Below the pieces are notes generated by a model, which had not been told where the DNA came from, searched no databases, and saw nothing but the letters and a program-made list of their open reading frames with translations. This document shows positions 480 to 53,009 of a DNA stretch of 64,000 nucleotides, piece by piece. The stretch is from positions 28,108-92,107 of the IMG/VR virus record IMGVR_UViG_3300028416_000009; one strand, 5' to 3'. The position numbers and the translations under genes were made by a program. This DNA comes from a virus (lineage: Duplodnaviria > Caudoviricetes). The first letter of the stretch is position 1; every line of letters starts with the position of its first letter.

Positions 480-2510
480 ATGGATACAGAATTCGAAGAA
501 CAAGGAGGAGGTAGAAGACTTCCAATGAAGAAAAGTAAAAACGATTCGAGAACACCCGTGTTGGATAATTTCTCTCGTGATTTAATTAAATTAGCAGAGC
601 AAGGAAAACTTGACCCTGTAATTGGTAGAGAGAAAGAGATTAATAGAATCGCACAGATTTTATCTCGTCGTAAAAAGAATAACCCGATTGTTATTGGTGA
701 ACCTGGTTCAGGTAAAACCGCAATCGTGGAAGGGTTAGCAATAAAAATACACCAAGGAGACTGTCCTAAGAACTTAGCGGATAAACGTATAGTTTCATTA
801 GACTTAACTTCTGTTGTTGCGGGTACTAAATACCGTGGACAGTTTGAGGAGAGACTTAAGGCTATTTTAGAAGAGTTGGTTGATAATGATAATGTAGTGG
901 TCTTTATTGATGAGATACATACCATCATTGGAACTGGTAACTCTTCAGGTTCATTAGATGCTTCGAACATCATTAAACCCGCACTGTCTCGTGGTGAAAT
1001 ACAATGTATTGGTGCCACTACGTTAGACGAGTATCGTGAGAATATTGAAAAAGACGGAGCATTAGAAAGACGTTTCCAAAAAGTATTGGTTGACCCTGCG
1101 ACAACTGAGGAAACAATGATTATCCTTTCTAATATCAAATCTAAATACGAGAATCATCATAAGGTTAAGTATAGCGAAGAATCATTAGAGGCTTGTGTTA
1201 CCTTATCGGACAGATACATTACTGACCGTGAATTACCTGACAAGGCTATCGATATCTTAGATGAGGTAGGTGCAAAGGCGCAAATCGATGTTAAATTACC
1301 TGAATTTATCGAAGACCTTAAATTACAAGTTGCTGAGATTAAGAGAAAGAAATTGGATGTGGTTAAGACACAAAACTATGAAATAGCTGCTGAACTAAGA
1401 GACCAAGAAAAGAAGTTAATTAATAAGTTAACAACTGAGAAAGAGGAGTGGGAACAAAAACAAAACGAAAACAGAACTTTAATTACTGAAGACGATGTTT
1501 ATAAAATTGTTTCAGATATGACTAATATTCCTGTAACTCGTTTAGACAGTGACGAAGCTAAGTCATTACTTAATTTAGAAAAAACCTTAAAGGCTAACGT
1601 AATCGGACAAGATGACGCAGTTACTAAGATTTCTAAAGCAATTCGTAGAAATCGTGTAGGTATTAAGGAACCAAACAGACCAATCGGTTCTTTCATATTC
1701 TTAGGTTCGACAGGTGTAGGTAAAACACACTTAGCTAAAACATTAGCACGTGAAATCTTTGGTGATGAATCGGCAATGATTCGTGTGGACATGTCAGAGT
1801 TAATGGAAAAACACTCAGTATCAAGATTAGTAGGGTCTCCTCCAGGATACGTAGGACACGACGAAGGTGGTCAATTAACCGAACAAGTTAAAAACAAACC
1901 TTACTCTGTAATACTTTTCGATGAGATTGAGAAAGCGCATAGAGATGTCTTTAATATCTTACTTCAAGTATTAGATGAGGGTCACTTAACAGATGGTTTA
2001 GGTCGTAAGATTAACTTTAAAAATACTTTAATTATTATGACTTCTAATGTTGGAGCAAGAAAACTACAAGACTTCGGAACGGGGTTAGGATTTAGTACAG
2101 ACTCTACAGTTTCACAACACGAAGAACTCACTAAAGGTGTAATTCAAAAAGCACTAAAGGCAGAATTCTCACCTGAATTCCTAAACCGTTTAGATGATAT
2201 TGTCGTATTCAAAGCTTTAGAGAAAGAAAACATTGGTAAAATCGTAAAGATTGAAATGAATAAACTCTCAAAGAGAATTGTAGAAAGAGGTTACAACATT
2301 AGTTTTGGACCATCAATCATCGACTTTATCGCAGACAAAGGGTTTGACGCCAAATACGGAGCAAGACCAATACGTAGAGCGATTCAGGAATACATAGAAG
2401 ACTTTATCGCTGAGGAAGTATTAGGTAAAGGTATTGTTGAGGGGAAGAGTTACTCCCTTAAAATAAATAAGGATTCTGAAAAAATTTCAGTAACAGAAAA
2501 AAAATCATAA
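480..2510 (+). CDS. clpC: ClpC-type AAA+ unfoldase lacking the N-terminal Clp-repeat domain
   Basis: Two Walker A motifs (GEPGSGKT, GSTGVGKT), pore loops KYRG/GYVG, UVR-like M-domain QNYEIAAELRDQE, ClpP-docking-like GLGF. Confidence 0.92.
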   Translation: MDTEFEEQGGGRRLPMKKSKNDSRTPVLDNFSRDLIKLAEQGKLDPVIGREKEINRIAQILSRRKKNNPIVIGEPGSGKTAIVEGLAIKIHQGDCPKNLADKRIVSLDLTSVVAGTKYRGQFEERLKAILEELVDNDNVVVFIDEIHTIIGTGNSSGSLDASNIIKPALSRGEIQCIGATTLDEYRENIEKDGALERRFQKVLVDPATTEETMIILSNIKSKYENHHKVKYSEESLEACVTLSDRYITDRELPDKAIDILDEVGAKAQIDVKLPEFIEDLKLQVAEIKRKKLDVVKTQNYEIAAELRDQEKKLINKLTTEKEEWEQKQNENRTLITEDDVYKIVSDMTNIPVTRLDSDEAKSLLNLEKTLKANVIGQDDAVTKISKAIRRNRVGIKEPNRPIGSFIFLGSTGVGKTHLAKTLAREIFGDESAMIRVDMSELMEKHSVSRLVGSPPGYVGHDEGGQLTEQVKNKPYSVILFDEIEKAHRDVFNILLQVLDEGHLTDGLGRKINFKNTLIIMTSNVGARKLQDFGTGLGFSTDSTVSQHEELTKGVIQKALKAEFSPEFLNRLDDIVVFKALEKENIGKIVKIEMNKLSKRIVERGYNISFGPSIIDFIADKGFDAKYGARPIRRAIQEYIEDFIAEEVLGKGIVEGKSYSLKINKDSEKISVTEKKS

Positions 2511-2564
2511 TCTTTTTGGTTACTTAAATAATAAAGAGTATATTTGTACTCAAATTAATAAACG

Positions 2565-3614
2565 ATGAACGAACAAAGGTTAAATAGGTTTAAAAAACTA
2601 CTTTCAGTACCAAGTAAGTCAAGAAATGAGTCTCAGATGGTTAACTTCATCTGTACTCAACTTGACAATATGATTGACAGTGGGGTTAATCTCGATTACT
2701 ACTTAGACGAACTTAGTAACATTTATGTGACTAAAGGAGAGTCTGAATCGTACCCGTGTTTTATCTCACACACTGACACGGTACACGAAATAGACTCCAT
2801 CAACGTAGTTGAAGGGATTAAAACTAAACCTAACACTTTCGGTAAGTCATTTGGTAACGAAGAATTCGATGTTCTTTACGCAGTTAACGACCAAGGAAAT
2901 CCTACGGGTATTGGTGGTGACGACAAATCAGGGATTTTTATTTGTTTAGAAATCCTTCGTAACGTCCAAGAGTGTAAATTAGCTTTCTTTGTTTCTGAAG
3001 AAATTGGTTGTATAGGGTCATCAAACGCAGATGTCGAGTTTTTTAACGATGTAACATTTGTTTGTGAGTATGACGCACCTGGAGACCACTTAATTACCGA
3101 GATTTGTTCGGGAGTTCGTTTGTATGAAGTAAACGGTGAATTTATCAACACAATGAAACCAATCATCGAAAATTCCTTTGGTAACCCGATGATTGAACAA
3201 TCACACCCTTTTACCGACGTGATGCAACTTAAAAACAAGTTACCTGTGTCGTGTATCAATATCTCATGTGGATATTATAACATGCACAGTGTGAATGAAT
3301 TTATTGCACTGGTAGACGTAGAAAAAGCGATTGACTGTGGTATTAGTATGACTATGTATGGTTTACAGGATAAATATTACTATGAAAATGACACACCTAA
3401 ATATTTTAACGATTCTAAAGAGGATGTTTACGAATCTGAAAACTCTAAATGGTTAAGTGAAGGTGTTGTAATATTTGATGAGGATTCATCGGGAATTACG
3501 ATTGAGGAATACGAAACAGGAAACTGTGTCTACCTAACAGAGAAAGAATGTAAGAAATTATATGAAACTCTAAAGTCGAAATTCACACCCTCGTCACAGT
3601 ACCGTTTATTTTAA
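2565..3614 (+). CDS. M20/M28-family zinc peptidase-like protein
   Basis: SHTDTV, GGDDKSG, SEEIG and YYNMH motifs. Confidence 0.75.
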   Translation: MNEQRLNRFKKLLSVPSKSRNESQMVNFICTQLDNMIDSGVNLDYYLDELSNIYVTKGESESYPCFISHTDTVHEIDSINVVEGIKTKPNTFGKSFGNEEFDVLYAVNDQGNPTGIGGDDKSGIFICLEILRNVQECKLAFFVSEEIGCIGSSNADVEFFNDVTFVCEYDAPGDHLITEICSGVRLYEVNGEFINTMKPIIENSFGNPMIEQSHPFTDVMQLKNKLPVSCINISCGYYNMHSVNEFIALVDVEKAIDCGISMTMYGLQDKYYYENDTPKYFNDSKEDVYESENSKWLSEGVVIFDEDSSGITIEEYETGNCVYLTEKECKKLYETLKSKFTPSSQYRLF

Positions 3615-3626
3615 ACACAAAAAAAG

Positions 3627-3650
3627 AAACACCCAATAGGGTGTTTTTTT
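3627..3650. terminator. Bidirectional intrinsic terminator
   Basis: aaacaccc-aata-gggtgttt with A/T tracts between convergent genes. Confidence 0.7.
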
Positions 3651-7517: not shown

Positions 7518-7590
7518 GCCTCTTTAGCTCAGTTGGTAGAGCAGCTGATTTGTAATCAGCAGGTCGTCAGTTCAAGTCTGGCAAGAGGCT
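7518..7590 (+). tRNA. tRNA-Thr(UGU)
   Basis: Cloverleaf; anticodon arm gctga-tTTGTAa-tcagc. Confidence 0.95.
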
Positions 7591-7606
7591 CAATAAAAAG
7601 ATAATA

Positions 7607-7756
7607 ATGACAATGGAATCAAATCAACAATCGAACGGTAACACACAATTAAATAGTGTCCGAGAAACATTCAACAGTAAAGTATCAAGACTAAGAATGT
7701 TAGGGAGCACGAAAAAAGTGGCTTGGGACAATCGCAGACGAAACAGAGCAATTTAA
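7607..7756 (+). CDS. Small basic hypothetical protein (49 aa)
   Basis: Manual ORF MTMESNQQ...RRRNRAI, below the track cutoff. Confidence 0.5.
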   Translation: MTMESNQQSNGNTQLNSVRETFNSKVSRLRMLGSTKKVAWDNRRRNRAI

Positions 7757-7757
7757 T

Positions 7758-7877
7758 ATGGTTACTAAAATTCCATTAACTTCAGAAAATAGAATGTTAC
7801 GAATTGGGTTTGGTAAGAATAAGGGTAATTGGTTTATACGAGTAGACCTTTGGTATGTCGGGTATCGAATATCTTAA
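7758..7877 (+). CDS. Small hypothetical protein (39 aa)
   Basis: Manual [11 protein letters not shown]...YRIS filling the gap before tRNA-Ser. Confidence 0.5.
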
Positions 7878-7879
7878 TA

Positions 7880-7965
<86 letters not shown>

Positions 7966-8033
7966 ATAGATTAAAGAGGGTAACCTCTTTTTTTTATGCA
8001 ATATTTTTTATATTATTATAAAAACATCTCATT

Positions 8034-8717
8034 ATGGCAGTGACATTTAACAAAGGAAACCAAGAAGGACAACCAAACCCAAACAATATTATTAAAAAAT
8101 TAGTGGAGGTTATTCAGAAATTGGAACAAGAAATAATTGACAATAAAAGAACAATTAACTCTAAAGTTAATGGTAATACTTTTTCGTTAACCGAAAAACT
8201 TAGAAGTTTCGACGATGTTGTTGAAAGTATTAACGTTAGAGTATCAACAATTGGAGAAAGAACCCCTGAAGAATTAACCACAGAACCTGTTAAGAGTTTA
8301 ATTGTGGATGGATATAATTCTATTCAAATAAAATGTTCCGCAGAGATTTTAAATAAATCGACCGAACTAACATCTGTAGACCACTCGTTATCGACTAGAA
8401 TTAATGAGGAAAAGGTTTTAAGAGAGAAAGACGTATTATCATTAGCGACTAACTTAGTCAGCTTTGATGAAAGAAATAATATTGTTGTTTCCGAGTTAAA
8501 AAGTAGATTTGATGGTATAAACCCAACAAACCCTTCTTCAGACTCTTTAATGGGGTTATCACAAAAAATAGAAAATCTAACAACAGAAGTCACTAACTTA
8601 CGTAATAATATTAATGTTGTTAGTGCCAAATTAGATAAGGAAGTGTTTACAGAAATGAATAGTCGAATCAACTCTATTAAATCTATTGAGACAAGATTGT
8701 TAATGTTAGGTGGTTAA
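8034..8717 (+). CDS. Coiled-coil hypothetical protein
   Basis: Heptad-like composition; long ORF. Confidence 0.6.
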   Translation: MAVTFNKGNQEGQPNPNNIIKKLVEVIQKLEQEIIDNKRTINSKVNGNTFSLTEKLRSFDDVVESINVRVSTIGERTPEELTTEPVKSLIVDGYNSIQIKCSAEILNKSTELTSVDHSLSTRINEEKVLREKDVLSLATNLVSFDERNNIVVSELKSRFDGINPTNPSSDSLMGLSQKIENLTTEVTNLRNNINVVSAKLDKEVFTEMNSRINSIKSIETRLLMLGG

Positions 8718-9008
8718 TTCTTTTTTTTTATTGAGATTAAAATCATCCCATAAACGTAACCTATCATTTGTGATAATATCAAAATTTTAAAAATACTATT
8801 AACACCATAAAGTGTTTTCATAGTTAAATTACTGTGTTCTACTAAGAGAACCATAACTACTGAATTGATTTTACTTAAAAAAATAAGACCTAAAAACCCT
8901 CCACAAATAAAAGAGGTATATGGGTATTTTTTTTTATTCATGGATTTTTCTTTTATATAAATATTAAATTTACTATCTTTGTCTCCTAATTATAAAATAT
9001 AAATAACT

Positions 9009-9860
9009 ATGAAGGATTATAGTAAAACTTTTCTTAAACTTTCGATAATATACTTATCGATAATGTTTTTTTTATTGTCTTGTGAGCAAGAACCATATTT
9101 ACGATTTGATGAAATCGACTCGATAGAGACTGAATCAAATATAGAGGAATATATTGAACATTATTTCGATATTGCCAGTGATTCATATACACAACCAGAC
9201 GGTGAAGATTATTTTCTAAAACCTCATAGATGGAAGTATGGTGGGTTTAACGGTACTGAAAAAATTGATGTTTATTTTGATGAGTCATTTGACAATATTA
9301 ATGCTAAAAATAACTTAATCAGTTTCTTTTCAGTCCTCGATAATATTATCGAAGATGAACTCATCAAATTTAATGTAGTTGATAATATTAACGATGCCGA
9401 TATAGTAATTGTATTTGGACATAATAACTTTCAGTCGATATTTGGTGGGGATGTTAACGATAATTGGTTAGGACAAGCGGTTACGGTAAATGAGCAAGAA
9501 TATAAGCAAGAATATAATAATGATAACATAGTTAACCCTGACATATGTTCTATCGTTGAAGGTAGATTTTGGGTTGATACTTATGACGAGTTATTAATTA
9601 AACATGAATTTCTACACGTGTTAGGTTTTATACATACAAATAAAAATAATTCAATAATGAATCATTATACAAGTCTGATGTCTAATTTAAAGGATGTTGA
9701 TGAAAAAGCGATTTACTTAAAGTATAATAATGATTTAGTTCAGGAGGTTATTGCCGTTCCTGGAGCAACTGGCTTTCCTAATTGGCTTTTCACTAATGAA
9801 GAATATGAAATTCATTTGGATAATGTTAGGTTAACTCTTGAAAATAGATTTAACTTATAG
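9009..9860 (+). CDS. Lipoprotein zinc metalloprotease (metzincin/M10-like)
   Basis: LLSC lipobox; HEFLHVLGFIH followed by SIM Met-turn. Confidence 0.8.
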   Translation: MKDYSKTFLKLSIIYLSIMFFLLSCEQEPYLRFDEIDSIETESNIEEYIEHYFDIASDSYTQPDGEDYFLKPHRWKYGGFNGTEKIDVYFDESFDNINAKNNLISFFSVLDNIIEDELIKFNVVDNINDADIVIVFGHNNFQSIFGGDVNDNWLGQAVTVNEQEYKQEYNNDNIVNPDICSIVEGRFWVDTYDELLIKHEFLHVLGFIHTNKNNSIMNHYTSLMSNLKDVDEKAIYLKYNNDLVQEVIAVPGATGFPNWLFTNEEYEIHLDNVRLTLENRFNL

Positions 9861-9994
9861 TATTATTAATATACAATAGACTTGTTTAAAACTAGTCGAC
9901 CCAAAGGTCTCAAACCTTATAAAAAAGTTGATGGTGGAGCACAATAAAATAAAAACCCTTTCTACTGAGAGGGTTTTTTTAAAACTTATTACTT

Positions 9995-10231
9995 ATGAAA
10001 ACAGTTAAAAACAATGAAGGTACGGTTAAAAGAGTTGATGACTCAACCGCAAATATGTTAGTTAATAGTGGTTCTTGGTTTTTTTGTCCAAAATCTGAAT
10101 ATAGAAAAACTAAAAAGGTTAAGAAGTCAAAGGACTCTTCCGAAACGGTTAATATAGAAAACAGGGGGTTATCCGATAAGAAACTAAGAAAAGAGAGAAA
10201 ACTTGCAAAGTCAAAGAGAAATAAAAATTAA
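9995..10231 (+). CDS. Small basic hypothetical protein
   Basis: ORF track; Lys-rich. Confidence 0.6.
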   Translation: MKTVKNNEGTVKRVDDSTANMLVNSGSWFFCPKSEYRKTKKVKKSKDSSETVNIENRGLSDKKLRKERKLAKSKRNKN

Positions 10232-10389
10232 TATCGAAGGATTTGATATTGAATTGACTGAAGGTGTTTATACTATCTCTAAAAATGGGATAGTATTAAA
10301 AGGGGATTTATATGAGTTACCCACCCCTCAGAAAACATGGTTAATTAACGCACATTCTTGCTCACAATCTTTAGTAAGAAGTTTAAATT

Positions 10390-11757
10390 TTGATAATAGT
10401 CTTGGGATTTAAAATTACTATTTTACATATATCGACACATATTCCTAACATATTCTTAGAAAGAAGAATGAGGGAGTTTACTCAATTTTATTTAAATCGT
10501 TTATCACAAAACAAACATCACGTTTTAAATGTTATAGATTGTAAAACCATCGATGATGGTCTAAGTCAACTCACCGATACTGATTATGTGTTTATTATTT
10601 CATCAGGTAATCGTATATATCGCTCTAACCTATTTTTAGATAAGGTTTTACAACCTTTTATGGATGACCCATCTTTAGGGTTAATGGGTCATATATTAGA
10701 CCGTAAAGACCAATGGTTTGAATTACACCCTCAGTTTGTTGTTTTTGATTATAAGAAATGGGTCGATATTGGTCGCCCAACATATGGTAATAAAGAGGAC
10801 AGTTCAGAGTCTATTGTTAGTATTGTTAGGTCAGAAAGTAACATACATGATGATTACACACCGCACTGGGTAAGATTAGAGAAACCAATTCAATATAATG
10901 AATACGATATTTTAGATAGGGGATGGGATTTTATTAATAGTTTTTTACTAAACGATTATAATATTAGTCCTTTTAATGATGATATACGTGGGTTAAAAGC
11001 GTATTGTTATCCTGAATATAATTCAGATAAGTTTTTTGAACTAATCGATAACAAGCGATATAGTGATGAGATTGATTATACTAAAAGAATTTTATTACAT
11101 TCATTATTAAACTCACCCGACAAGACATGGTTATTTAACACAGAGGAGATGTGTATTATGAAAGAAAAAACTGACATAACATACGATGTGGTTGCTTTAC
11201 CGTGTGCTGGTTTTAAATTTTTAGATTTATTACATAGCGATTTAATACATGAGAAAAGTAAAATCGTATTTTTTGACTTTAGTGAAAGTAGTGTTGAATG
11301 GATTAATTACGTTATTAACTCTGAAGAGTTAACCATAACAGACTTAGTATTAAACAAACCCGAAGAGGTCAAATTAATAGGTAAGACAATCGAAAAACTA
11401 AGTGTCGATGGGATTCCTTCAAATGATTTGATACGTCTCTCAGAAGAAGTTTATTCGTTTTATGGGGGTATTAATAATTTTATGAGGTTACTGAAAAAGT
11501 TTAGAACGTTAAACATAGAAATCATTAATACAGATATCATTAATGACCCACTAAATTGTTTACATCGGTTAAACGGTGATAATAATTTAATTAATATATC
11601 TAATATCTTTTCAACAGACTACTTTAATTTGTTTTACTCTGAAAAAGAACGAACAGATAAGTTTGAAAGATTTATTAAAACTTTAAATCGTAGTACAACT
11701 GTTGTTGGTCGAGGTGTAGATACTTATTATAGTGAAAAATCATACAATAATGGATAA
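10390..11757 (+). CDS. Hypothetical protein (possibly glycosyltransferase-like N-terminus)
   Basis: Long ORF; no decisive motif. Confidence 0.5.
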   Translation: MIIVLGFKITILHISTHIPNIFLERRMREFTQFYLNRLSQNKHHVLNVIDCKTIDDGLSQLTDTDYVFIISSGNRIYRSNLFLDKVLQPFMDDPSLGLMGHILDRKDQWFELHPQFVVFDYKKWVDIGRPTYGNKEDSSESIVSIVRSESNIHDDYTPHWVRLEKPIQYNEYDILDRGWDFINSFLLNDYNISPFNDDIRGLKAYCYPEYNSDKFFELIDNKRYSDEIDYTKRILLHSLLNSPDKTWLFNTEEMCIMKEKTDITYDVVALPCAGFKFLDLLHSDLIHEKSKIVFFDFSESSVEWINYVINSEELTITDLVLNKPEEVKLIGKTIEKLSVDGIPSNDLIRLSEEVYSFYGGINNFMRLLKKFRTLNIEIINTDIINDPLNCLHRLNGDNNLINISNIFSTDYFNLFYSEKERTDKFERFIKTLNRSTTVVGRGVDTYYSEKSYNNG

Positions 11758-11992
11758 TATTAGTGTTATTGAAGTCATGGGTCTATATGACGAAATGATT
11801 AAAATACAAGACGAGGATATCGATTTTGCCAAATCCAAAAAAAGTATCCCTGAATTTGATAATGATTTGGTTCTATATTACTATATTTGTGACTCATTAT
11901 TAAAGGACCTTACAATATTAGAAGAATACGAGTTATGTTCTAAGATTAAAACACTTAAAGAAAAAATAGAATATTCACTTGACGAAGATTAG
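11732..11992 (+). CDS. Small protein with UVR-like E-x-YE-x-C motif
   Basis: LEEYELCSKIKTL; true start probably ~11750. Confidence 0.6.
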   Translation: MKNHTIMDNISVIEVMGLYDEMIKIQDEDIDFAKSKKSIPEFDNDLVLYYYICDSLLKDLTILEEYELCSKIKTLKEKIEYSLDED

Positions 11993-12070
11993 ATTTTAAG
12001 AAATTTTTGACTTATCTTTACAGTGTAACAAAAACAAACGTTATTTACTTAATGGAAAATTAGTACTGAT

Positions 12071-12156
12071 GCCGTTGTGGTGGAATTGGTAGACACGTTG
12101 GACTTAAAATCCAATGGACAGTAATGTCCGTGGCGGTTCGAGCCCGCCCAGCGGTA
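12071..12156 (+). tRNA. tRNA-Leu(UAA)
   Basis: Cloverleaf with variable arm; ttgga-ctTAAaa-tccaa. Confidence 0.95.
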
Positions 12157-12158
12157 CT

Positions 12159-12249
12159 AAAGAGAGGTAGTGAAGCTACAATGATATAGAAAAAGGTAAG
12201 GGTTAACCTCTATATCGTAGTAACCCCGAAAGACCCGAAACTTCTCTTT
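12159..12249 (+). ncRNA. Unnamed structured RNA between tRNAs
   Basis: Nested stems aaagagagg/cttctcttt, gctac/gtagt, gatataga/tctatatc. Confidence 0.55.
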
Positions 12250-12253
12250 TTAT

Positions 12254-12327
12254 GGACTCGTAGCTCAGCTGGATAGAGCATCTCCCTTCTAAGGAGACGG
12301 TCATAGGTTCGAATCCTATCGGGTTCA
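12254..12327 (+). tRNA. tRNA-Arg(UCU)
   Basis: Cloverleaf; tctcc-ctTCTaa-ggaga. Confidence 0.95.
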
Positions 12328-12348
12328 CAAATTCTTAAAAAGAAACAA

Positions 12349-12537
12349 ATGGGGAAAAACAAACCAAACATCTTCAAGGGAAGAACAAAAGAATGGGATA
12401 TGGAGAAAGGTAAATTCAGACAGTATCGAAGTAATCAGGGTAGAAGTCCTGAACGAATGGAATCGTCATATAAAATTATGGGGATAGCTATTGTGGGGTT
12501 AGTGCTGATTTTCTTATTTCTACTTATATCTCAATAA
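12349..12537 (+). CDS. Small membrane protein
   Basis: C-terminal hydrophobic helix. Confidence 0.6.
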   Translation: MGKNKPNIFKGRTKEWDMEKGKFRQYRSNQGRSPERMESSYKIMGIAIVGLVLIFLFLLISQ

Positions 12538-12544
12538 CCAATAT

Positions 12545-12660
12545 GTAGAGTTAGTCAAATGGTACGACGCTCCAACCTTAAGACCGAAATCATCATACTA
12601 GTTACACGATGCGATTAAGTTGGTTAGGCAGAAGTAGGGGTTCGACCCCCCTACTCTACA
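12545..12660 (+). ncRNA. tRNA-like RNA with an expanded (~40 nt longer) anticodon region
   Basis: Acceptor GTAGAGT/ACTCTAC, D-arm GTC-aaatggtac-GAC, T-arm AGGGG-ttcgacc-CCCCT; no canonical anticodon loop. Confidence 0.7.
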
Positions 12661-12675
12661 GACTTCATAATATTA

Positions 12676-12749
12676 GGACTTTTAGCTCAGTTGGTTAGAG
12701 CACCGCACTCATAATGCGTAGGTCGAAGGTTCGAGTCCTTCAAGGTCCA
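12676..12749 (+). tRNA. tRNA with CAU anticodon (Ile2 or elongator Met)
   Basis: Cloverleaf; cgca-ctCATaa-tgcg; G1-C72 pair so not initiator. Confidence 0.9.
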
Positions 12750-12791
12750 CAAGTGAGTTCTTTGACATAACAATTAAATAAAACAGAAATT

Positions 12792-13127
12792 ATGGAAATA
12801 ACATCATTTATTTTAGGTGTATGTACAGTCATTGTATTAGTAATGGTTGTGGGTACGTTTGTGAACTACATGACAACAAAGTCCTTAAAAGAGGAAATAA
12901 ACCGACTGAATCGAGAAAACGAAATTCAGTATAACGAATCTGAAAAGATTAAAAAAGAACTAATTGATTATGTGGACAGTCTACATAATGTTAGTGAAAA
13001 TAACATGAACGAAGTCTACCGTCATATTGACAGTAGAGTCGATAAAACTGTGAATAATGTGAGCGAACACGTTGCAGAAATTTACAGACAATTAGATAGT
13101 AACAAAAAATCCGTAGTTAACGGATAA
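12792..13127 (+). CDS. Membrane-anchored coiled-coil protein
   Basis: N-terminal TM helix then coiled coil. Confidence 0.65.
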   Translation: MEITSFILGVCTVIVLVMVVGTFVNYMTTKSLKEEINRLNRENEIQYNESEKIKKELIDYVDSLHNVSENNMNEVYRHIDSRVDKTVNNVSEHVAEIYRQLDSNKKSVVNG

Positions 13128-13214
13128 TAAATAAAACGTTAAAGAACTCACTTTTTTTAATAAAAACCTCGGTCAATAGTTGTTAATACTTATTATTATT
13201 ACTAATTTTACATT

Positions 13215-13439
13215 ATGAAAGAACTACACGAATTACATATTGCAATGTTAAATACTTATGATATATTAGCTGAAAACATGACTGTTGAAGATGTTATGGT
13301 GAGTACTGAAAGTTTTATGTTGTTTGACCCTACTGAGGGTATAAACTCAGACACCTGTGATACCCTTTTAGAACATTTTGAAGACTTAGAGGAGTATGAG
13401 AAGTGTAAGACAATATTAGAGTATAAAAAGACGCTATAA
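13215..13439 (+). CDS. Small protein with UVR-like motif
   Basis: FEDLEEYEKCKTILEY. Confidence 0.65.
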   Translation: MKELHELHIAMLNTYDILAENMTVEDVMVSTESFMLFDPTEGINSDTCDTLLEHFEDLEEYEKCKTILEYKKTL

Positions 13440-14092
13440 TGGATACTGTATATCATGACAAAAGGGGTTATGAAAATATTATAGTAACCTTTTCAAGTGG
13501 GGTTAATAGGGTTTTAGGTGAAACCCCTAAAGAATTCAGTAAAATAATTACAAAATATAATTGTGATATTTTATACATTTATGACGACCTTCTTTCTTGG
13601 TATGTAAACGGAGTTAAAGGATATGAGTCGGTTAAATTACTTTCAGAGCACATTACAACTATAATTAGTGGATATAAAAATTCAGGATTTTTAGGGTCTA
13701 GTATGGGTGGTTACGCGGCCATATTATACTCGATATTTTGTAACCCAAATAAATGTTTGTCCTTCTGTCCTCAAACATTATTACAACATAAAAAAAGAGA
13801 CCTATTCAACGACTTTAGATTTCCAATTTTAGAAAAAAATGGAATAATGAGTAACTACTATTTAGACTTAAAACCTTTTTTATTTAAAAATGATTTTAAC
13901 ACGATAATATCTATCATCTATAGCGGAGACAATAAATTTGACCTTAAACATGCGGAATGGGTGTCATCGTCTGACAATATCACTCTTTATCCTCAAGACA
14001 GTGATTTACATAATATTTGTGGAGTATTAAAACATAGAGGACAACTTTATAGTACTATCGAAAATACTTTTAATTTTTTATCTATAAACTAA
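13439..14092 (+). CDS. Alpha/beta hydrolase-fold protein
   Basis: GSSMGG nucleophile elbow; downstream D and H. Confidence 0.75.
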   Translation: MDTVYHDKRGYENIIVTFSSGVNRVLGETPKEFSKIITKYNCDILYIYDDLLSWYVNGVKGYESVKLLSEHITTIISGYKNSGFLGSSMGGYAAILYSIFCNPNKCLSFCPQTLLQHKKRDLFNDFRFPILEKNGIMSNYYLDLKPFLFKNDFNTIISIIYSGDNKFDLKHAEWVSSSDNITLYPQDSDLHNICGVLKHRGQLYSTIENTFNFLSIN

Positions 14093-14137
14093 ATAAAAGG
14101 CTTATCTTTGTAGTGAACAGAAAAACAGATAAAGGTT

Positions 14138-14377
14138 ATGTCAACAGAACTAAAAACACTTAAAGGACAGTTTCATAGTCAAAAGACTAATGAGATGGAG
14201 AACACTGAAATGTCATTAACACGATTCAGTGGTGGTAAAGAAGGGATGAAACTTCAATTAACAATGAGAGAGCAAGGAGACTTCTTTACTCATATCACCC
14301 TTAATACCGATGAGATAAAAAAACTAATTAAGGAACTACAAGATAATTTTAATTTAAAAGAAGAAACTGATGTCTGA
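14138..14377 (+). CDS. Hypothetical protein
   Basis: ORF with TATCTTTG promoter at ~14103. Confidence 0.6.
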   Translation: MSTELKTLKGQFHSQKTNEMENTEMSLTRFSGGKEGMKLQLTMREQGDFFTHITLNTDEIKKLIKELQDNFNLKEETDV

Positions 14378-14624
14378 TTATTATGATAATAGTGACGATA
14401 CGTTTGACAATAGTTTATTAGATGACTATATTACAACAACGTTAGATGAGATACAGAGTCAATACGTAATACCTAATGGTACTAAAGATATTGAAGTTGT
14501 TGATGAAATTGAAGTTATTGGTGATACCAAAATACTTTATACTAAATCAGGTAAGTCATTTGCCGAACATCAAGTGGAGAATATCGGAGTAGTGTATGAA
14601 TACGTTACTAAAGATAGTGAGTAA
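14370..14624 (+). CDS. Acidic hypothetical protein
   Basis: ORF track; overlaps upstream stop. Confidence 0.55.
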
Positions 14625-14628
14625 AATA

Positions 14629-14714
<86 letters not shown>

Positions 14715-14717
14715 AAC

Positions 14718-14791
14718 GGTCTGGTAGTTCAGTTGGTTAGAATACATGCCTGTCACGCATGGGGTCGCGAGTTCGAATCTCGTCCAGACCG
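14718..14791 (+). tRNA. tRNA-Asp(GUC)
   Basis: Cloverleaf; catgc-ctGTCac-gcatg. Confidence 0.95.
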
Positions 14792-14801
14792 CTAAAAGAA
14801 G

Positions 14802-15242
14802 ATGAAGATGAAGGGGAGAATATTGTTATTGACATTATTTTTAAGTAGTATGGTGTGGTCACAGAATTGTTCACCATATTATAAAGTTAAAAATTGGGAC
14901 GTGAATCAGGATGTATTTGCAACTGTTTCATTAATTAGTTGTTTTCACGCATACGGTGTCGCAACATCAATAGATTGGTATGACTACTCTGTAGGATTAC
15001 ATATGATGAGTAAAGGACATAACGGTACAGTGTATGGTTTTGTTAGTTACCAATACAGACCAATCAGGAAGGTTAAATTATCTGCAGGTCCATTATATCG
15101 TATAAACAACGATAGTGGTTTATTGTTAGGGCAGTATGGTGGTGATGTTTATATCTACAAACGAGTTTGGTTAACAGGTAGAGTTTTACAAATAAGGAGA
15201 GGTTTAAATTATCTTAATGTAGGACTAAAAGTGGTGATATAG
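14802..15242 (+). CDS. Secreted/outer-membrane beta-barrel-like protein
   Basis: Signal peptide; alternating beta-strand pattern. Confidence 0.5.
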
Positions 15243-15252
15243 TAAGTATCAT

Positions 15253-15324
15253 GGCCCGTTCGTCTATCGGCTAGGACGCCAGGTTTTCATCCTGGTAAGA
15301 GGGGTTCGATTCCCCTACGGGCTA
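15253..15324 (+). tRNA. tRNA-Glu(UUC)
   Basis: Cloverleaf; ccagg-ttTTCat-cctgg. Confidence 0.95.
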
Positions 15325-16012
15325 CTTAATGGAAGAGAGGAAATCGGGATTCAGAAATGAGTCCCTTTTTTTATCGTTATCTTTAAATTATTTTGTATAT
15401 TTACCACGTTAAATAATATAAAATATGACACGAACAATAATTGATGGGGTTAGATACCTGAAAAGAAAAACAACAACAGAGCTTACTGCGGATGAGAAAA
15501 AGAAACTTCTAAATGGAGAAATCGTTATGTCTCATTACGCCACAGATTACTTTTTTTATAAAATAATTAAATAGAAATATGATAACAGAATTTGAAGTAC
15601 TAAACACTTACAGTAAACTTAAAAACGGGCATTACGGAGAAATAGGTAGTTTCGCTCACCATAAGACGTGTAGTCTAATATGTGTTGGTTCACTATTAAC
15701 TGATGAAATGGATGAATTTAGAAAAAACTTTAAAGATGAATTATGGGATTGGTTTTTACAATCTAAAGATTATTACTATAATTCATTACATAAGAACCTT
15801 TAAATAAATAAAAATGTGTCTTCGTCTTCGTGGGTGTAGTAATCTTCGAAACCGTCGATAGTTGTAATGATGATTTCATTACTATCAATAGTCCCCTTAA
15901 ATACATTATTTGATTTATCGGGCATTGGTAAAAGGTTAATAAATGTTGGTTTTTATGTAGTAGAGACCTACATTTTATAAATAGTGAAAAAAAAACGAAT
16001 CTCAGGTTAAAT

Positions 16013-20341: not shown

Positions 20342-20623
20342 ATGTACTATGAAGATTATGTGGTGATGACAAATACTGGTATGACAAATAAGTCTACCTT
20401 ATTAGACACGTTAAAGAGTTACGAACTGTATAAACAGATGACGTATAGAGAATGGGAATCCACTATAACTTTCTCAACAGTGGATGGGTTTGATAATAAT
20501 ATGGAGGCTCTAATTTATTATGGTGGTATAACCTTAGAGAGATTAGAATATTATGAAAAGTACGAAGAATGTAAAAAATTAAATAACATTTTGAAACTTT
20601 ACGAACCGATAATCAGAAAATAA
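20342..20623 (+). CDS. Small protein with UVR-like motif
   Basis: LEYYEKYEECKKLNNI. Confidence 0.6.
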   Translation: MYYEDYVVMTNTGMTNKSTLLDTLKSYELYKQMTYREWESTITFSTVDGFDNNMEALIYYGGITLERLEYYEKYEECKKLNNILKLYEPIIRK

Positions 20624-35325: not shown

Positions 35326-37710
35326 TTAAAGATTTTTCAACTCTGGTGGTAACATACTAACAGGTATGCCGAATTTCTTCTTTTCAGGACCGCCTTTAAA
35401 ATTAAATCCATCAATTGATGTCTCATATCCATTAACACTTGCCCATGTCTTATGACCAGCATTTAGAACTTGTCCGACAACGAATGGGAATCTAATGTTA
35501 TATTTGTTTATAATGTCCACAATCTGACCGTTAGGGTGTTTCTCCACAGTAATAGTCACTTTAGGGTTAACTATTTTTCTAAACACAACCTTATCGACTC
35601 TTCTTCTCATAAATGAGTTATCTTCATTTAAATCTTGAATCTCATCAACAGTGGTTACTACTTCAGGGTAAATCATACCTAAATTTTTATCGTCTTTACC
35701 TTCGTAATCTACTTTATTTAGAACTGTTCTAATTGAGTTAAGTGCTCCCGCTCTTTTATCGTTTGTGTCTACAACTGACCATGGAATTACCTCGGCAGTT
35801 TGTTTCAATGCCTTTTCTTTGTATTCAGTATAGTCGTCCCACTTATCAATAGAAGCCTCATCGTTAGGTGAGAATTTCCAATACTTAAGTGGTGAGTTCT
35901 TTCTCATATCAAAACGTTTCCTTTGTGTGTCTTGTGTTATAGATAACCAAAACTTAAAGACATCGTATCCTTTGGATAAAAGTGAACTTTCAAAACTACC
36001 CACATTCTCCATAAAGTCAGAATATTCTTCCATTGTTGAGTATCCCATAACTGGTTCCACAATACCTCTATTATACCAACTTCTGTCAAAGAATATGATT
36101 TTACCTGATTCGATTTCTCTTTCGTATCTATCAAACCAATTCTTTTTTTCTTCGGGGGTTGGTATTCCTAAAGCAACTACCTTATAGTATTGTGGTTGTA
36201 GGTATTCTATAAATTTTTTAATTGTTGACCCTTTACCTGCCGAATCCCTACCTTCAAATACAATAACAACAGATTTACCTGTTTTCTTAACGTGTTCCTG
36301 TAATTTCAATAGTTCTACCTGTAAAGGTCTTAGTTCTTTTATAAATGATTTTCTACCGATTTTAGATTTTTCTTGTTCCTCATCATCATCAACGAAATAA
36401 CTATCTTCGTGTTCAGGTTCAGGAGAAACTCTATCGGTAAGTGATTTCTTATATTTTTCGATATATTTTATGACATTATCTTCTACGTTACCAGACTTAA
36501 GTGATTTTCTATCTAAATTACGTAAAAAATCTTTGGTAACATCTTCATCTGTTAATCCAACAATAAGGTCATCGTATTTGGATGGTTCGATATCTAACTC
36601 ATAAAATTTAGTTAGTAAGTCCACTACCGATTCATTGAGTGAATAAAGTTTTGTTGCAAACTGTTCTTTATTATTATACAAATATTGTAAAACCTCAGGT
36701 CTTAGATATGCTTTTAAATCATCAGTAAATAACGAGTAAACTCTATCTATTGGTTTATTACCATCTTCATTTGGTAAATATGAATCGACCTCATCTTTGG
36801 TTACGAACGGGAATTTTAATTGGTATTCCTCTAAACCCTCTTTGGGTTTTATACCTATTGAGTGGTATTTAGTACCTCCGGACATTAATTCTCCACGATT
36901 AAGTATTCTATCGATTAAACCATATTCACCCAATAATGGGCACATACTGTAGTATATAGACCTTTCTTCTTTAACTAAACGTGCAAAAATAAATGTAATA
37001 TTAGTATCCTTAAAACAAGTCATTAAAAACTCTGACTTATCTTCTTTACTATAATCATCACTCCTTAAGAAAGTCATTACGTTTTTTAGTGATTCATCAT
37101 TTTCGTTGTCCTTATATTTAACCCTCTTATACTTATCGAATACCCCCTTATAAGAACCTAGTTTAAAACGTTCTGTACGTTTAATACCATCTGAAACGAT
37201 TTTTAAAGAATAATGATTACCCTTAATTATAATGTCCGCTTTTGGGTTCTTTTCATTGTTTGACGGGTCTTCATAATTTAATTTTGCGGTTGTTTCACCA
37301 CCAAATAATCCTGCGAATATTCCTTCAAACGAGAAACCTCTACCATCGGTAGTTCCTGAAAATCTGTTCCAATACTCGTGAAATCTAATCCTATCTTTTA
37401 CCTTTAATGCCTTATCAGGGTTTTCATAATTAACACCTAATTTAAGTCTCATTGCATTCCCTTCATCTCCTTTCATGATACCTTTTACCATATCCGAAGA
37501 TGCTATGTTGTCCATGTGTATACCGCCTAACAACTTAATTGCCTTAATTATATGGTCTTCAGACGATTCATTAAGAATATTGACTATCTGTTTATTTGTG
37601 AATTTTATCTTCATTGTTTTAACGTTATGTATATAAATATTAAATAATTCACTAATTATGTCTATAGTATAATATAAAACATAATTAACTCTACTTTTGG
37701 TTTTAACCAA
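35326..37710 (-). CDS. ppk2: Multidomain protein containing polyphosphate kinase 2 (likely start ~37614, MKIKF)
   Basis: FEGRDSAGKG Walker A, FDRSWYNR, PLKYWKFSPND; N-terminal FE...ADI...YSLK nuclease-like region. Confidence 0.85.
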   Translation of the reverse strand: MVKTKSRVNYVLYYTIDIISELFNIYIHNVKTMKIKFTNKQIVNILNESSEDHIIKAIKLLGGIHMDNIASSDMVKGIMKGDEGNAMRLKLGVNYENPDKALKVKDRIRFHEYWNRFSGTTDGRGFSFEGIFAGLFGGETTAKLNYEDPSNNEKNPKADIIIKGNHYSLKIVSDGIKRTERFKLGSYKGVFDKYKRVKYKDNENDESLKNVMTFLRSDDYSKEDKSEFLMTCFKDTNITFIFARLVKEERSIYYSMCPLLGEYGLIDRILNRGELMSGGTKYHSIGIKPKEGLEEYQLKFPFVTKDEVDSYLPNEDGNKPIDRVYSLFTDDLKAYLRPEVLQYLYNNKEQFATKLYSLNESVVDLLTKFYELDIEPSKYDDLIVGLTDEDVTKDFLRNLDRKSLKSGNVEDNVIKYIEKYKKSLTDRVSPEPEHEDSYFVDDDEEQEKSKIGRKSFIKELRPLQVELLKLQEHVKKTGKSVVIVFEGRDSAGKGSTIKKFIEYLQPQYYKVVALGIPTPEEKKNWFDRYEREIESGKIIFFDRSWYNRGIVEPVMGYSTMEEYSDFMENVGSFESSLLSKGYDVFKFWLSITQDTQRKRFDMRKNSPLKYWKFSPNDEASIDKWDDYTEYKEKALKQTAEVIPWSVVDTNDKRAGALNSIRTVLNKVDYEGKDDKNLGMIYPEVVTTVDEIQDLNEDNSFMRRRVDKVVFRKIVNPKVTITVEKHPNGQIVDIINKYNIRFPFVVGQVLNAGHKTWASVNGYETSIDGFNFKGGPEKKKFGIPVSMLPPELKNL

Positions 37711-49233: not shown

Positions 49234-49332
49234 ACTTTTGTTGTTTGTGTGTTATTGACTATAAATATAAATATATATAGTTATCCGTTAATAATCTATT
49301 GACGATTATAAATAAATACTATATTTTTAGGT

Positions 49333-50302: not shown

Positions 50303-50749
50303 ATGGTGGATTCAAGAAAAACCTTTATTAATATTGCATTAATTTTATCTAAACACAGTAAGTGTGTTGGGGCTCAAGTTGGTGCAGTTATAGTTAAAGA
50401 CGATAGGATACTCTCCACGGGGTATAATGGAACACCTAAAGGGTATTCTAACTGTTGTGATGTTTGGGACCATCAAATAACTCCTGAACATTATGAGTGG
50501 AGTAAAAAATATGAGATTCACGCAGAACAAAACGCAATTATATGGGCGGCTCGTAAAGGTATAGAGATTGAAGGTTCGGATATCTATACAACAATGAGGC
50601 CTTGTTCTCAGTGTACTAAACTAATTATCGGTTCAGGGATAAAAAATATTTACTATAATACGGATTACTCTAAAGAGTCTTACTTAAATAGTGAATTAGA
50701 ATCGTTCATAAACGATAATGATGTAAATCTTATACAAATCAATGTATAG
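50303..50749 (+). CDS. dCMP deaminase
   Basis: STGYNG, HAEQNA, PCSQC. Confidence 0.93.
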   Translation: MVDSRKTFINIALILSKHSKCVGAQVGAVIVKDDRILSTGYNGTPKGYSNCCDVWDHQITPEHYEWSKKYEIHAEQNAIIWAARKGIEIEGSDIYTTMRPCSQCTKLIIGSGIKNIYYNTDYSKESYLNSELESFINDNDVNLIQINV

Positions 50750-51317
50750 TTATACTATTGAAATAATCGGATTAGGGTGTGAGGTCGTAGCCTGTGAGTT
50801 AGACGGTAATGAGATGCGTAGTCTAAAAGACTACATGAAAAATAATAACATACCTTTAGAAGACATATTCAAAGAAGAGCAACACTTAAATAACATTGAT
50901 TTGGGAGTTAATTCTTGGTTTGAATTAGACGATATATGTCACGTATACGGGGCATATCCTAATAATTGTAGGGTTAAGGTTAAAGGGATTTGTAACGATA
51001 GCGTCAACATATTAACCACAACAACAATAAAAACATTCATAGACGACTATTATTCTTTAGTGGAGTTCGATAGTATACATTCAATTATGGATGAAAAAGG
51101 AGTGTTAGTCAAATCTACTCTAAAAACTAAAGAACCATTCAACCAAGATTTACTTACGTTATTAGTCACTAAAATTGAGACGTTAAAAAATCCCTTATAT
51201 TTAGTAACAGGTTTTATGTATGGGGATGAGTATCTTAAATTGGAAACTGTCATTGCTGAAGAATTACGTCTTAAAACTTATATCAATAAAACCACAGATA
51301 ATTTAATAATTTTATAG
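50742..51317 (+). CDS. Hypothetical protein, probable paralog of 58736-59347
   Basis: Similar layout and EKG motif. Confidence 0.55.
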   Translation: MYSYTIEIIGLGCEVVACELDGNEMRSLKDYMKNNNIPLEDIFKEEQHLNNIDLGVNSWFELDDICHVYGAYPNNCRVKVKGICNDSVNILTTTTIKTFIDDYYSLVEFDSIHSIMDEKGVLVKSTLKTKEPFNQDLLTLLVTKIETLKNPLYLVTGFMYGDEYLKLETVIAEELRLKTYINKTTDNLIIL

Positions 51318-51351
51318 AGTTTGGATTATTTATTATAATAATCTTTACTAT

Positions 51352-51672
51352 ATGAACGAAATTAGAAATATATCCGTTATTCAAGAGAATCTTTTACTAT
51401 GTTACGATTTAGCCAAATTAGAAGATGGTATTCGTAATATTGATTATATCTATATCAGTAGATTTTTATCGTCGTTAAGTTCAGAAGAATTAATGTCTTT
51501 ATGGACTAATTCCATTACCCCTGATTATGTTTCAGATTTAGATTTAGTGTATGACTTATGTAAATGGATAATACCTAAATTAGAAGAATTAGAATGGTAT
51601 GAGTCTTGTCATAACGTTTTAAAAGTCACTGACGATTGTGAATTGTATTTGGCAAACTTCCCTAATATTTAA
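51352..51672 (+). CDS. Small protein with UVR-like motif
   Basis: LEELEWYESCHNVLKV. Confidence 0.6.
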   Translation: MNEIRNISVIQENLLLCYDLAKLEDGIRNIDYIYISRFLSSLSSEELMSLWTNSITPDYVSDLDLVYDLCKWIIPKLEELEWYESCHNVLKVTDDCELYLANFPNI

Positions 51673-51724
51673 TTGGCACAAAAAAAACCCACTTATGTGG
51701 GTTTTATAATGTTTTCTTAGTCCT

Positions 51725-52048
51725 TTAGTTGGAAGAACCTCCACCGGCACCTGAACCTCGTACGGCTCTGCCTCCACCACCTCTGTTGTTTGATGAACTA
51801 CTTCCACCACCACCTCGTGTTGTTGTTGTTGTTGTCCCTGAACTACTTCCACCACCTCCTTGTGTTGTTGTTGTTGTTCCTGAACCATTTCCTGAACCAT
51901 TTGATGAGCTACTTCCACCACCTCCTTGTGTTGTACTAGTAGTTACATTACTGGTTGTCGTATTAGTTGTTGTTCCTGATGATTTTTTATTTTTGTAAAT
52001 CACGAACCCTACAATTACTACCGCTAAAATAATTAAAACTGTTGTCAT
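51725..52048 (-). CDS. Membrane-anchored Gly/Ser/Thr-rich low-complexity protein
   Basis: N-terminal TM helix; repeats of TTTTQGGGGSSS. Confidence 0.7.
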   Translation of the reverse strand: MTTVLIILAVVIVGFVIYKNKKSSGTTTNTTTSNVTTSTTQGGGGSSSSNGSGNGSGTTTTTQGGGGSSSGTTTTTTRGGGGSSSSNNRGGGGRAVRGSGAGGGSSN

Positions 52049-52065
52049 AATAATATATTTTTGTT

Positions 52066-52713
52066 TTACTGTTTATGTATTTTCCCAACACAAAATCGGT
52101 CAATACCCATGTTATTAAGAATGTAGTTAATTCCTTTTTCAATGTCAAATAATTTTTCACTATATTCGGAAGGAATCTCCTCTTCAAGTAAATCAATACT
52201 TGGTAATGTGTTATCTATTAGGTCTACTATTATAATATGTTCCCCACTTATTGATAATCCTTTTATATTATATTTCTCGGATAATTTTCTTCGAGCCTCA
52301 TCTATTATAAATAGTAATTTTCTATCCATTTGTTCAACCATATCACAATCTAACTCTAAATCTGTAGGTTTAGGTTTATTAGATATTGATATTATTTTAA
52401 ACTTTCTAAGTATACTACCTAACATAATTACGTCTAAAGTTGCGTATATGTCTTGATACACCCAACCAAAATCATTTACGATTGTTTCATAAAAATATTC
52501 TACGTAGAACTCTTCATTTGGTTTTAGACTGTCAACGTCAAACCACTTATCCCCATCAAAACTTACTTTACCTTTTAACCCCCAAGCTGATAGGTATAAC
52601 GTACCTCCACACATAACAGGTTTATTAAAGATAAATGTAAAATCCGCGTACGGATGTTTGATGTTAATTTCCTTACCGTTTAAAAAGTCGATGGTTTCTT
52701 CAATGTTCTTCAT
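52066..52713 (-). CDS. Hypothetical protein
   Basis: ORF with TATTTATA upstream. Confidence 0.55.
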   Translation of the reverse strand: MKNIEETIDFLNGKEINIKHPYADFTFIFNKPVMCGGTLYLSAWGLKGKVSFDGDKWFDVDSLKPNEEFYVEYFYETIVNDFGWVYQDIYATLDVIMLGSILRKFKIISISNKPKPTDLELDCDMVEQMDRKLLFIIDEARRKLSEKYNIKGLSISGEHIIIVDLIDNTLPSIDLLEEEIPSEYSEKLFDIEKGINYILNNMGIDRFCVGKIHKQ

Positions 52714-52766
52714 ATTATATAAATATTTAACTTTATTTATTTTTAACCTTTGGTATCATTTAAGAG

Positions 52767-53009
52767 ATGAGAAACTTAATAATAGATTGGTACGATGAAA
52801 TGATTTCGATAAATGAGGAACGTGAAAACTACGAGGCTTGTTCGTATTTTAAAACGTCTAAAGACGCGTACCTTAATTTCGAAAACGAAGGTACGGTATT
52901 ATTTAGAGGTAAACGTTATAACTCCGAAGAAATTATAGAATTAATAAAAAACGAAAAAGGTCCTATTGGTGAAATATTACAATCAAATAAAGGGGCTAAA
53001 AGTAGTTAA
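52767..53009 (+). CDS. Small protein with N-terminal UVR-like motif
   Basis: NEERENYEACSYFK. Confidence 0.6.
   Translation: MRNLIIDWYDEMISINEERENYEACSYFKTSKDAYLNFENEGTVLFRGKRYNSEEIIELIKNEKGPIGEILQSNKGAKSS

Follow-up and report, generated by a model that had tools for sequence, protein, structure and literature searches.

A widespread family of phage mini-proteins with a UVR-like hairpin and its predicted docking on the M-domain tip of ClpC

In Staphylococcus aureus the unfoldase ClpC is kept off by tip-to-tip contacts between M-domains, in which F436, R443 and D444 form the head-to-head contact of the repressed resting state, and unrepressed ClpC is toxic (PMC5699869). MecA, the ClpC adaptor of Firmicutes, depends on F436 too (PMC5699869). 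MecA also needs the N-domain of ClpC (PMC12583610). The latter paper further describes an N-deleted S. aureus ClpC, which has no proteolytic activity alone and is as active as MecA-stimulated ClpC once F436 is mutated in addition (PMC12583610). An early protein of phage SPO1, Gp53, binds ClpC and modulates ClpCP (PMC6873191). Here we analyse a 64,000-base stretch of viral DNA (Caudoviricetes), bases 28108-92107 of the 92,107-base IMG/VR record IMGVR_UViG_3300028416_000009, which we call the window. It carries a gene for a ClpC that lacks the N-domain, together with five small open reading frames (ORFs) sharing the motif E-x-YE-x-C. The original prediction, made from the letters of the window, held that the five proteins are adaptors or regulators docking on ClpC through its M-domain. 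We find that the motif is real and that the family behind it exists; its conserved part is predicted to form a hairpin, and the predicted interface of this hairpin with ClpC passes its controls. Our preferred reading, to which we give somewhat less than even confidence, is that the invariant hairpin of this widespread phage family docks on the M-domain tips of ClpC-type unfoldases. The record is estimated by CheckV to be 28% complete and has no end repeats.

A family of small acidic phage proteins

The five ORFs all lie on the plus strand, and the coordinates and motif strings first reported for them proved exact. Mini-protein 1 (11732-11992) has 86 residues from a GTG codon and carries EEYELC at 11921-11938; its start is most likely the ATG at 11750, giving 80 residues, because its close relatives are of that length. 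Three such relatives (near-identical clusters) were found at 82-96% identity, and the homologue search returned no others. Mini-protein 2 (13215-13439; 74 residues) carries EEYEKC at 13389-13406, mini-protein 3 (20342-20623; 93 residues) EKYEEC at 20555-20572 and mini-protein 4 (51352-51672; 106 residues) EWYESC at 51592-51609. In mini-protein 5 (52767-53009; 80 residues) the string ENYEAC at 52824-52841 is close to the N-terminus, at residue 20 of 80, while in the other four ORFs the motif is located 14-26 residues from the C-terminus. All five proteins are acidic, with isoelectric points of 4.1-4.8. Pairwise blastp comparisons gave only short matches centred on the motif (E 3e-4 to 2). The description of the ORFs as otherwise dissimilar was thus nearly right, apart from these short stretches of similarity around the motif.

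Across all six frames of the record the pattern E.[YFW]E.C matches five times, each match being on the plus strand and in one of the named ORFs. This compares with 0.08 matches expected from residue composition and with a mean of 0.10 and a maximum of 2 in 300 shuffles. A chance or compositional coincidence among unrelated small ORFs would agree with three of the five not being significant by hidden Markov model (HMM). Against it stand the five matches in small ORFs of one orientation, where 0.1 were expected, and the 1434-representative family that the motif defines (see below). Since the shuffles, the viral pattern scan and the profile search already contradict a coincidence, we consider it extremely improbable.

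A profile built from the five sequences led to two members in each of two huge phages. Searching IMG/VR for the DNA pattern of EEYEKC gave at least 120 viral loci; in 107 of the 120 listed the motif is in frame within an ORF of 57-234 residues that has an ATG and an uncut 5' end, and it lies at most 50 residues from the C-terminus. Nearly all of these ORFs (96 of 107) join a single blastp cluster, with the flank consensus ..aI.YFE..EEYEKCA.LkkI.. around the motif. As the DNA pattern finds only the EEYEKC version, the family alignment has a bias in its favour. Out of 1.84 billion, a profile of 104 aligned sequences then picked 1434 representatives at E<=1e-3, 168 of them at E<=1e-10. The best 150 of the 1434 are 61-289 residues long (median 138) and have the domain at the C-terminal end. 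All of these 150 keep the cysteine, as do all eight matches that vary elsewhere in the motif, an invariance that is partly ascertainment, since the search profiles reward cysteine. One of the 150, representative P0006 (289 residues), is a putative fusion of an N-terminal LPD38 (E 2.5e-30), a polyvalent-protein domain, to the EEYEKC domain.

In contigs of cellular genomes, eight of the 120 EEYEKC matches listed are true members (at least 28 bits), the rest being mostly chance. Five of the eight come with titles: four of these name Bacteroidota (Bacteroidales twice, Bacteroidetes and Crocinitomix) and the fifth Salinivirgaceae, which also belongs to the Bacteroidota. The other members (L233, L244 and L265) are not among the titled five.

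The family is unannotated in the resources searched. No Pfam family matches it, be it in the five ORFs, in the wider members or in the 104 aligned members, among which the weak hints are to Phage_Gp168 in three (E 0.011) and to YqaH in two. Ten wider members had no PHROG match at E<=0.01, and the five window ORFs gave only weak, unnamed PHROG matches at E<=1 (best E 0.0023). With tblastn against GenBank phages a 145-residue member found no match, and the 13215 protein found one hypothetical protein of an uncultured virus. The string EEYEKC did not turn up in the literature searched, and a search on huge phages with ClpC gave nothing relevant, as judged by title and the start of the abstract.

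The five ORFs belong to this very large family of small acidic phage proteins, or are modelled on it, to different degrees. With the family HMM the 13215 protein scores E 3e-12 and the 11732 protein E 7e-4 (2e-5 after iteration), by which the former is a clear and the latter probably a member. The remaining three gave E 0.2 (51352) and 0.17 (52767), with 20342 not listed among the matches at E<=10. An HMM of a ClpC-linked subfamily, run against about 1600 ORFs, placed four of the five in its top 6 with E values of 0.002-0.36, 51352 having rank 2 (E 0.013) and 20342 rank 6 (E 0.36). A convincing orthologue of this subfamily, whose proteins have 108-116 residues, was not found in the window (best E 0.002). 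Judged by eye, the hydrophobic spacing around the motif is kept in 20342 and 51352, which appear to fit the family pattern. In 52767 the aromatic pair upstream of the motif sits 8 residues away from its usual place in the family; this ORF shares the motif only, and its membership is doubtful.

Two of the proteins were modelled with AlphaFold2. For 13215 the mean predicted local distance difference test (pLDDT) value is 84 and a C-terminal hairpin (helices 45-57 and 61-73) lies in blocks of pLDDT 88-96. For 51352 the mean is 65 and the hairpin (helices 62-79 and 83-102) lies in blocks of pLDDT 78-84. In both models the motif makes up the turn and the beginning of helix 2, in agreement with the expectation that it folds as a hairpin in the manner of UVR. 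The models indicate that the conserved part of the family consists of some 35 residues at the C-terminal end, folded as a helix-turn-helix hairpin.

The likeness to UVR (PF02151), as found in UvrB and UvrC, the ClpC M-domain and McsA, lies in this hairpin of about 35 residues and in its turn, which is acidic-aromatic-acidic with small residues after it (E-x-[YF]-E-x-[A/C]-A-x-[LI]). The register proposed by the earlier reader, EEYEKCA on QxYExAA, is also the one that hhalign returns. The differences are that the mini-proteins have no Pfam match, that an invariant cysteine stands for the first alanine, that the R-D pair after the motif is missing with K/N in its place, that the hydrophobic residue after it lies one position closer and that only small phage proteins make up the family. 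Measured against the UVR signature [YF]-E-x-A-A-x-[LI]-R-D, Y-E-x-C-(A) is thus kept, while the first alanine is cysteine and the R-D is lacking. In the ESM Atlas two independent queries gave UVR as the sole Pfam family on the nearest named clusters (12-13% of their members), with scores of 0.83 and 0.87 that lie below the 0.9 line. A reading of the motif as similar to tetratricopeptide repeats was dropped by reasoning: the hydrophobic positions are spaced one residue differently, and there is a single hairpin.

Small proteins with bona fide UVR motifs do occur in the huge phages LR756502.1, LR745206.1 and G012 (L135, L136, L139, L140 and L146; PF02151 at 25.7-39.6 bits), and none was found in the record of the window. 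They are of two types, one of about 200 residues with a C-terminal YE.AA..RD, which may be similar to bifunctional nucleases (DUF151-like), and one of 130-154 residues ending in FE[ED]AA.[IL]RD.

Predicted docking on the M-domain tip

The ClpC gene of the window (480-2510, plus strand) encodes a double-ring AAA+ unfoldase of 676 residues. Its Pfam matches are AAA (8e-24), AAA_2 (5.5e-68), AAA_lid_9 (3.8e-28) and ClpB_D2-small (1e-23). With two AAA+ modules, AAA_lid_9, D2-small and a UVR-type M-domain it has the features of a ClpC-type Hsp100. The UVR motif of the M-domain at residues 283-313 (bases 1326-1418, plus strand) matches PF02151 with 23.2 bits at a cut-off of 21.5 and with 28.8 bits in a six-frame search of the record, in which ClpC was the only match. 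The M-domain tip QNYEIAAELRD, which the gene had been said to keep, occupies residues 298-308 (bases 1371-1403). The absence of the N-domain was likewise borne out: Clp_N has no Pfam match in the ORF or in any frame of the 92-kb record, and the ORF covers positions 162-760 of the 764-position profile phrog_4871.

We predicted the complex of ClpC residues 200-355, comprising the small subdomain of D1 and the M-domain, with the 13215 protein, using an alignment of 104 rows. The interaction prediction score from aligned errors (ipSAE) was 0.62 (0.61-0.63 in three runs) versus 0.10 for the best of three controls. The pLDDT of the partner was at least 88 and the contacts agreed by 100% between runs. 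Of solved complexes 58 of 80 attain the pass mark, and of mismatched pairs 2 of 110; owing to the custom alignment, these counts apply only roughly here. On the ClpC side the predicted interface is made of V295, Q298, Y300, E301, A303, A304 and R307, and on the mini-protein side of L52, E56, E59, Y61, E62, C64, K65 and L68, i.e. of the conserved motif. The model suggests that the 13215 motif sits on the tip of the ClpC M-domain, motif on motif and tip to tip. The complex prediction against the M-domain, which had been named as a check of the docking idea, thus passes its controls and places the motif on the tip. When the shared motif Q-x-[YF]-E-x-A-A-x-L-R-D is aligned, Y300 and R307 of the phage ClpC fall on F436 and R443 of the S. 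aureus protein.

In the model the cysteine of the motif packs against Q298, Y300 and A303 of ClpC as the alanine of a UVR motif would. This packing argues against a reading in which the invariant cysteine is itself the functional centre, for instance of a metal-bridged or redox-sensitive dimer or of covalent chemistry, and in which the resemblance to UVR is that of any hairpin. The constancy of the cysteine in the representatives listed and in the variants, at a position where UVR has alanine, and the missing match to the UVR family of Pfam would suit such a centre. The cysteine is the single conserved one, no second ligand is conserved and part of its invariance is ascertainment. We regard a cysteine-centred function as improbable.

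If docking occurs as predicted, the mini-proteins would resemble MecA in their site of action: MecA contacts the tip at F436 and breaks the resting state (PMC5699869), and the mini-protein is predicted on the equivalent residues. The two systems differ in that the N-domain, which MecA also needs, is missing from the phage ClpC. The mini-proteins are also much smaller, having a third of the size of MecA or less. With SPO1 Gp53 (PMC6873191) the likeness is that of a precedent for phage targeting of ClpC; Gp53 differs in being a 25-kDa protein of a Firmicute phage. The phage ClpC itself can be seen as a natural counterpart of the engineered N-deleted S. aureus ClpC, which the M-domain tip still represses and which reaches full activity once the tip contact is broken, as with F436A (PMC12583610). 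It differs from this construct in its relation to the ClpC of Bacteroidota (56-59% identity).

Phage and host ClpC as candidate partners

The N-domain-less ClpC of the window is part of a large viral clade and not a quirk of one phage. Its relatives in IMG/VR viral contigs amount to 589 stretches confirmed by tblastn. Among the best 80 of these, 76 of the 79 complete frames lack the N-domain (671 to about 760 residues), the other three having 830-872 residues, and the tip Q.YE.AA.LRD fits all 15 of the commonest strings, which make up 64 of the 80 loci. The nearest ClpC proteins in GenBank, at 59% identity, are those of two huge phages, both uncultured, with 642 and 635 kb. The closest complete relative, IMG/VR record G056 (297 kb, 99% complete), has a ClpC that is 69% identical to that of the window. 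It matches 57 of the 114 ORFs of at least 120 residues in the window's record, the median identity being 50%, and around ClpC their order is conserved.

Residues 533-538 of the window's ClpC form a GTGLGF loop in D2 (bases 2076-2093, plus strand; GLGF at 535-538). Loops of the type (I/L)GF dock ClpP, and by its sequence the GTGLGF loop is likely to be the ClpP-docking site of the phage ClpC. ClpP itself was not found in the window's own record, 28% complete as it is. Five of five large phages with N-domain-less ClpC (G056, G012, G068, LR756502.1 and LR745206.1) have one to three ClpP-family genes each (frames of 196-248 residues), and thus appear to carry a ClpCP of their own.

Host ClpC was examined in five metagenome-assembled genomes (MAGs) of Bacteroidota, which are five of the eight that contain a true member of the mini-protein family. 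All five encode a full-length ClpC of 843-875 residues that is 56-59% identical to the phage ClpC over its residues 5-672 and has a typical N-domain of about 170 extra N-terminal residues. From this alignment the phage ClpC looks like a host-type ClpC minus about 170 N-terminal residues. The tip pattern Q-x-[YF]-E-x-A-A-x-x-R-D is common to the phage ClpC and to all five MAG proteins, such that a host target with the same tip is available in each member-carrying MAG searched.

Several results weigh against docking on ClpC. As for the resemblance to UVR, PF02151 at E<=10 matched none of the five window ORFs, none of four huge-phage members and none of ten wider members, noting that the HMMER filters drop most matches above E 0.1. 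UVR was not among the 25 Pfam families listed for the 104 aligned members, and the family profile searched against PDB sequences found no UvrB, ClpC or McsA. A comparison by hhalign with a UVR profile, a small one made from 11 phage UVR segments, gave a probability of only 2.6% and a P of 0.017. Foldseek against the PDB returned nothing at E<=0.001. The best Z in the VIA fold search was 3.9, with none at or above 5, such that the known fold can be named only as a helical hairpin. There the C-terminal hairpin of UvrB (2nmv_B; Z 3.2, root-mean-square deviation (rmsd) 3.2, 36 residues, rank 20) and McsA (8wtb_B; Z 3.1, rmsd 7.0, 46 residues, rank 26) are tied with unrelated hairpins. The hairpin is therefore UVR-like in shape and in the chemistry of its turn and is not a demonstrated member of UVR; the claim of UVR motifs in the five ORFs finds no support in the HMM comparison. 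For three of the five ORFs no HMM gave a significant match. The complex prediction covers one of the five proteins and one ClpC fragment, its controls are not helical hairpins, and its pass may reflect the memory of the model for solved UVR-UVR or M-domain contacts.

The distribution of the family points in the same direction. Of the 48 records of 30 kb or more in which the family occurs, 3 have an AAA_2 Clp ATPase and 45 do not. Among the five with a completeness of 90% or above, one has it, and in four complete phages of 59-94 kb a family member occurs without any Clp ATPase. Conversely, a profile match at E<=0.001 occurs in 7 of 27 ClpC-bearing records of at least 40 kb, a sample that left out the ClpC-bearing L316, L324 and L345. 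G056, with its N-domain-less ClpC, has neither the motif in a small ORF, nor a homologue of any of the five proteins, nor an HMM match at E<0.09. Its single motif match is in an unrelated 232-residue protein, and its only UVR is that of ClpC. Some link is suggested by a set of five ClpC phages, each of which has one to four family members. Where ClpC-bearing records do have a member, in 7 of 12 one is encoded on the strand of ClpC, 0.9-3.6 kb downstream of it. This neighbourhood signal comes from mutually related phages, and the member usually stands directly after an AAA_33 kinase, RNA ligase and cREC_REC and not after ClpC, whose opposite side is flanked by Hsp20 and KTSC genes.

The family thus extends well beyond phage ClpC, and its link to phage-encoded ClpC is not obligatory. 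The co-occurrence that had been proposed as a check turned out unfavourably in the 45 of 48 records and in G056. An equal occurrence in phages without ClpC, which the original prediction had named as speaking against it, is largely what is found as far as phage ClpC is concerned, with host ClpC a possible target. Given this width, the ClpC target, if real, is mainly that of the host. The same data bear on a reading in which the phage's own N-domain-less ClpC has the five proteins as its dedicated adaptors, each bringing a different set of substrates through its variable part. It would account for five paralogues in 92 kb beside such a ClpC, for the predicted complex with the tip of this ClpC and for the member near ClpC in one subclade. 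The ClpP genes in all five large relatives, by which a full phage ClpCP exists, also suit it. As the co-occurrence stands against it and none of the five proteins has a homologue in the closest complete relative, we give it little credence. Of the proposal that the mini-proteins are M-domain-docking adaptors or regulators, the hairpin and the predicted tip docking are retained, while the dedicated partnership with phage ClpC is too narrow.

A more serious alternative is that the hairpin mediates docking or oligomerisation with some partner other than ClpC, which would make the ClpC model a look-alike artefact. UvrB and UvrC offer examples of UVR hairpins pairing with each other, and the partner might be the protein itself, UvrB or UvrC, a protein combining a bifunctional nuclease with UVR, or a host protein. 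The prevalence of the family in phages without Clp ATPase and its absence from a complete phage with N-domain-less ClpC favour this explanation. Possible partners exist in the UVR small proteins and the DUF151-like proteins with C-terminal UVR of related huge phages, and the weak Pfam hints in 3 and 2 of the 104 members and the LPD38 fusion in one of 150 also fit. It is opposed by the predicted ClpC interface, which involves precisely those residues that are invariant in the motif and holds up against three controls, and by the same tip on host ClpC in all five MAGs. We consider another partner a real possibility, though one that on balance we doubt.

In one ClpC subclade (L347-L352; records G068 and G071-G075) the genes form a module of KTSC, Hsp20 and ClpC, often followed by the AAA_33 kinase, a T4-type RNA ligase and cREC_REC and then by the motif protein. 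An RNA-repair set thereby adjoins a chaperone set.

Upstream of base 480 the window holds only the start of a DnaK-like gene (2-193, minus strand), divergent from ClpC. We assign it tentatively by the N-terminal signature of the translation; if this holds, the phage carries an Hsp70 alongside its Hsp100. The window is AT-rich (G+C 29-34%) and has eight tRNA genes (Thr, Ser twice, Leu, Arg, Met, Asp and Glu) at 7518-15325, interleaved with small ORFs that include mini-proteins 1 and 2. A low-complexity protein of 107 residues, rich in Gly, Ser and Thr and with an N-terminal hydrophobic stretch, is encoded at 51725-52048 (minus strand), and a low-complexity ORF at 63394-63981 (minus strand) has at least nine tandem TTTTTEDV repeats. 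The C-terminal half of a 794-residue ORF at 35326-37710 (minus strand) presumably resembles polyphosphate kinase 2, as judged by eye.

Possible mode of action

In our preferred reading the UVR-like hairpin would dock tip-to-tip on the M-domain of ClpC-type unfoldases, the targets being the ClpC of the Bacteroidota host and, where present, the N-domain-less ClpC of the phage, on which the site would comprise Y300, A303, A304 and R307. Capping of the tip would release ClpC from its head-to-head repressed state into active hexamers. In an N-domain-less ClpC the tip is the only known brake. Through their variable N-terminal parts the mini-proteins might bring in substrates or make further contacts. 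That they bind ClpC in the cell, activate it or serve as adaptors at all is inferred. A fuller version, which we consider possible and rather unlikely, is that the mini-proteins are natural M-domain-tip caps: they would mimic the tip of a neighbouring M-domain, with the invariant cysteine in the contact, break the head-to-head state and switch on the host ClpCP or the phage's N-domain-less ClpC with ClpP.

Regardless of docking on ClpC, a phage family of 1434 representatives that has neither a Pfam nor a PHROG entry stands as a finding, and so does the large clade of N-domain-less phage ClpC, with which a phage ClpP usually occurs. If the mini-proteins are indeed tip caps, they would be the first natural ClpC regulators that act through the M-domain alone, and the N-domain-less ClpC-ClpP of the phages would otherwise be insulated from N-domain adaptors. 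Such caps would represent a new phage route to take over proteolysis and would provide a template for ClpC activators.

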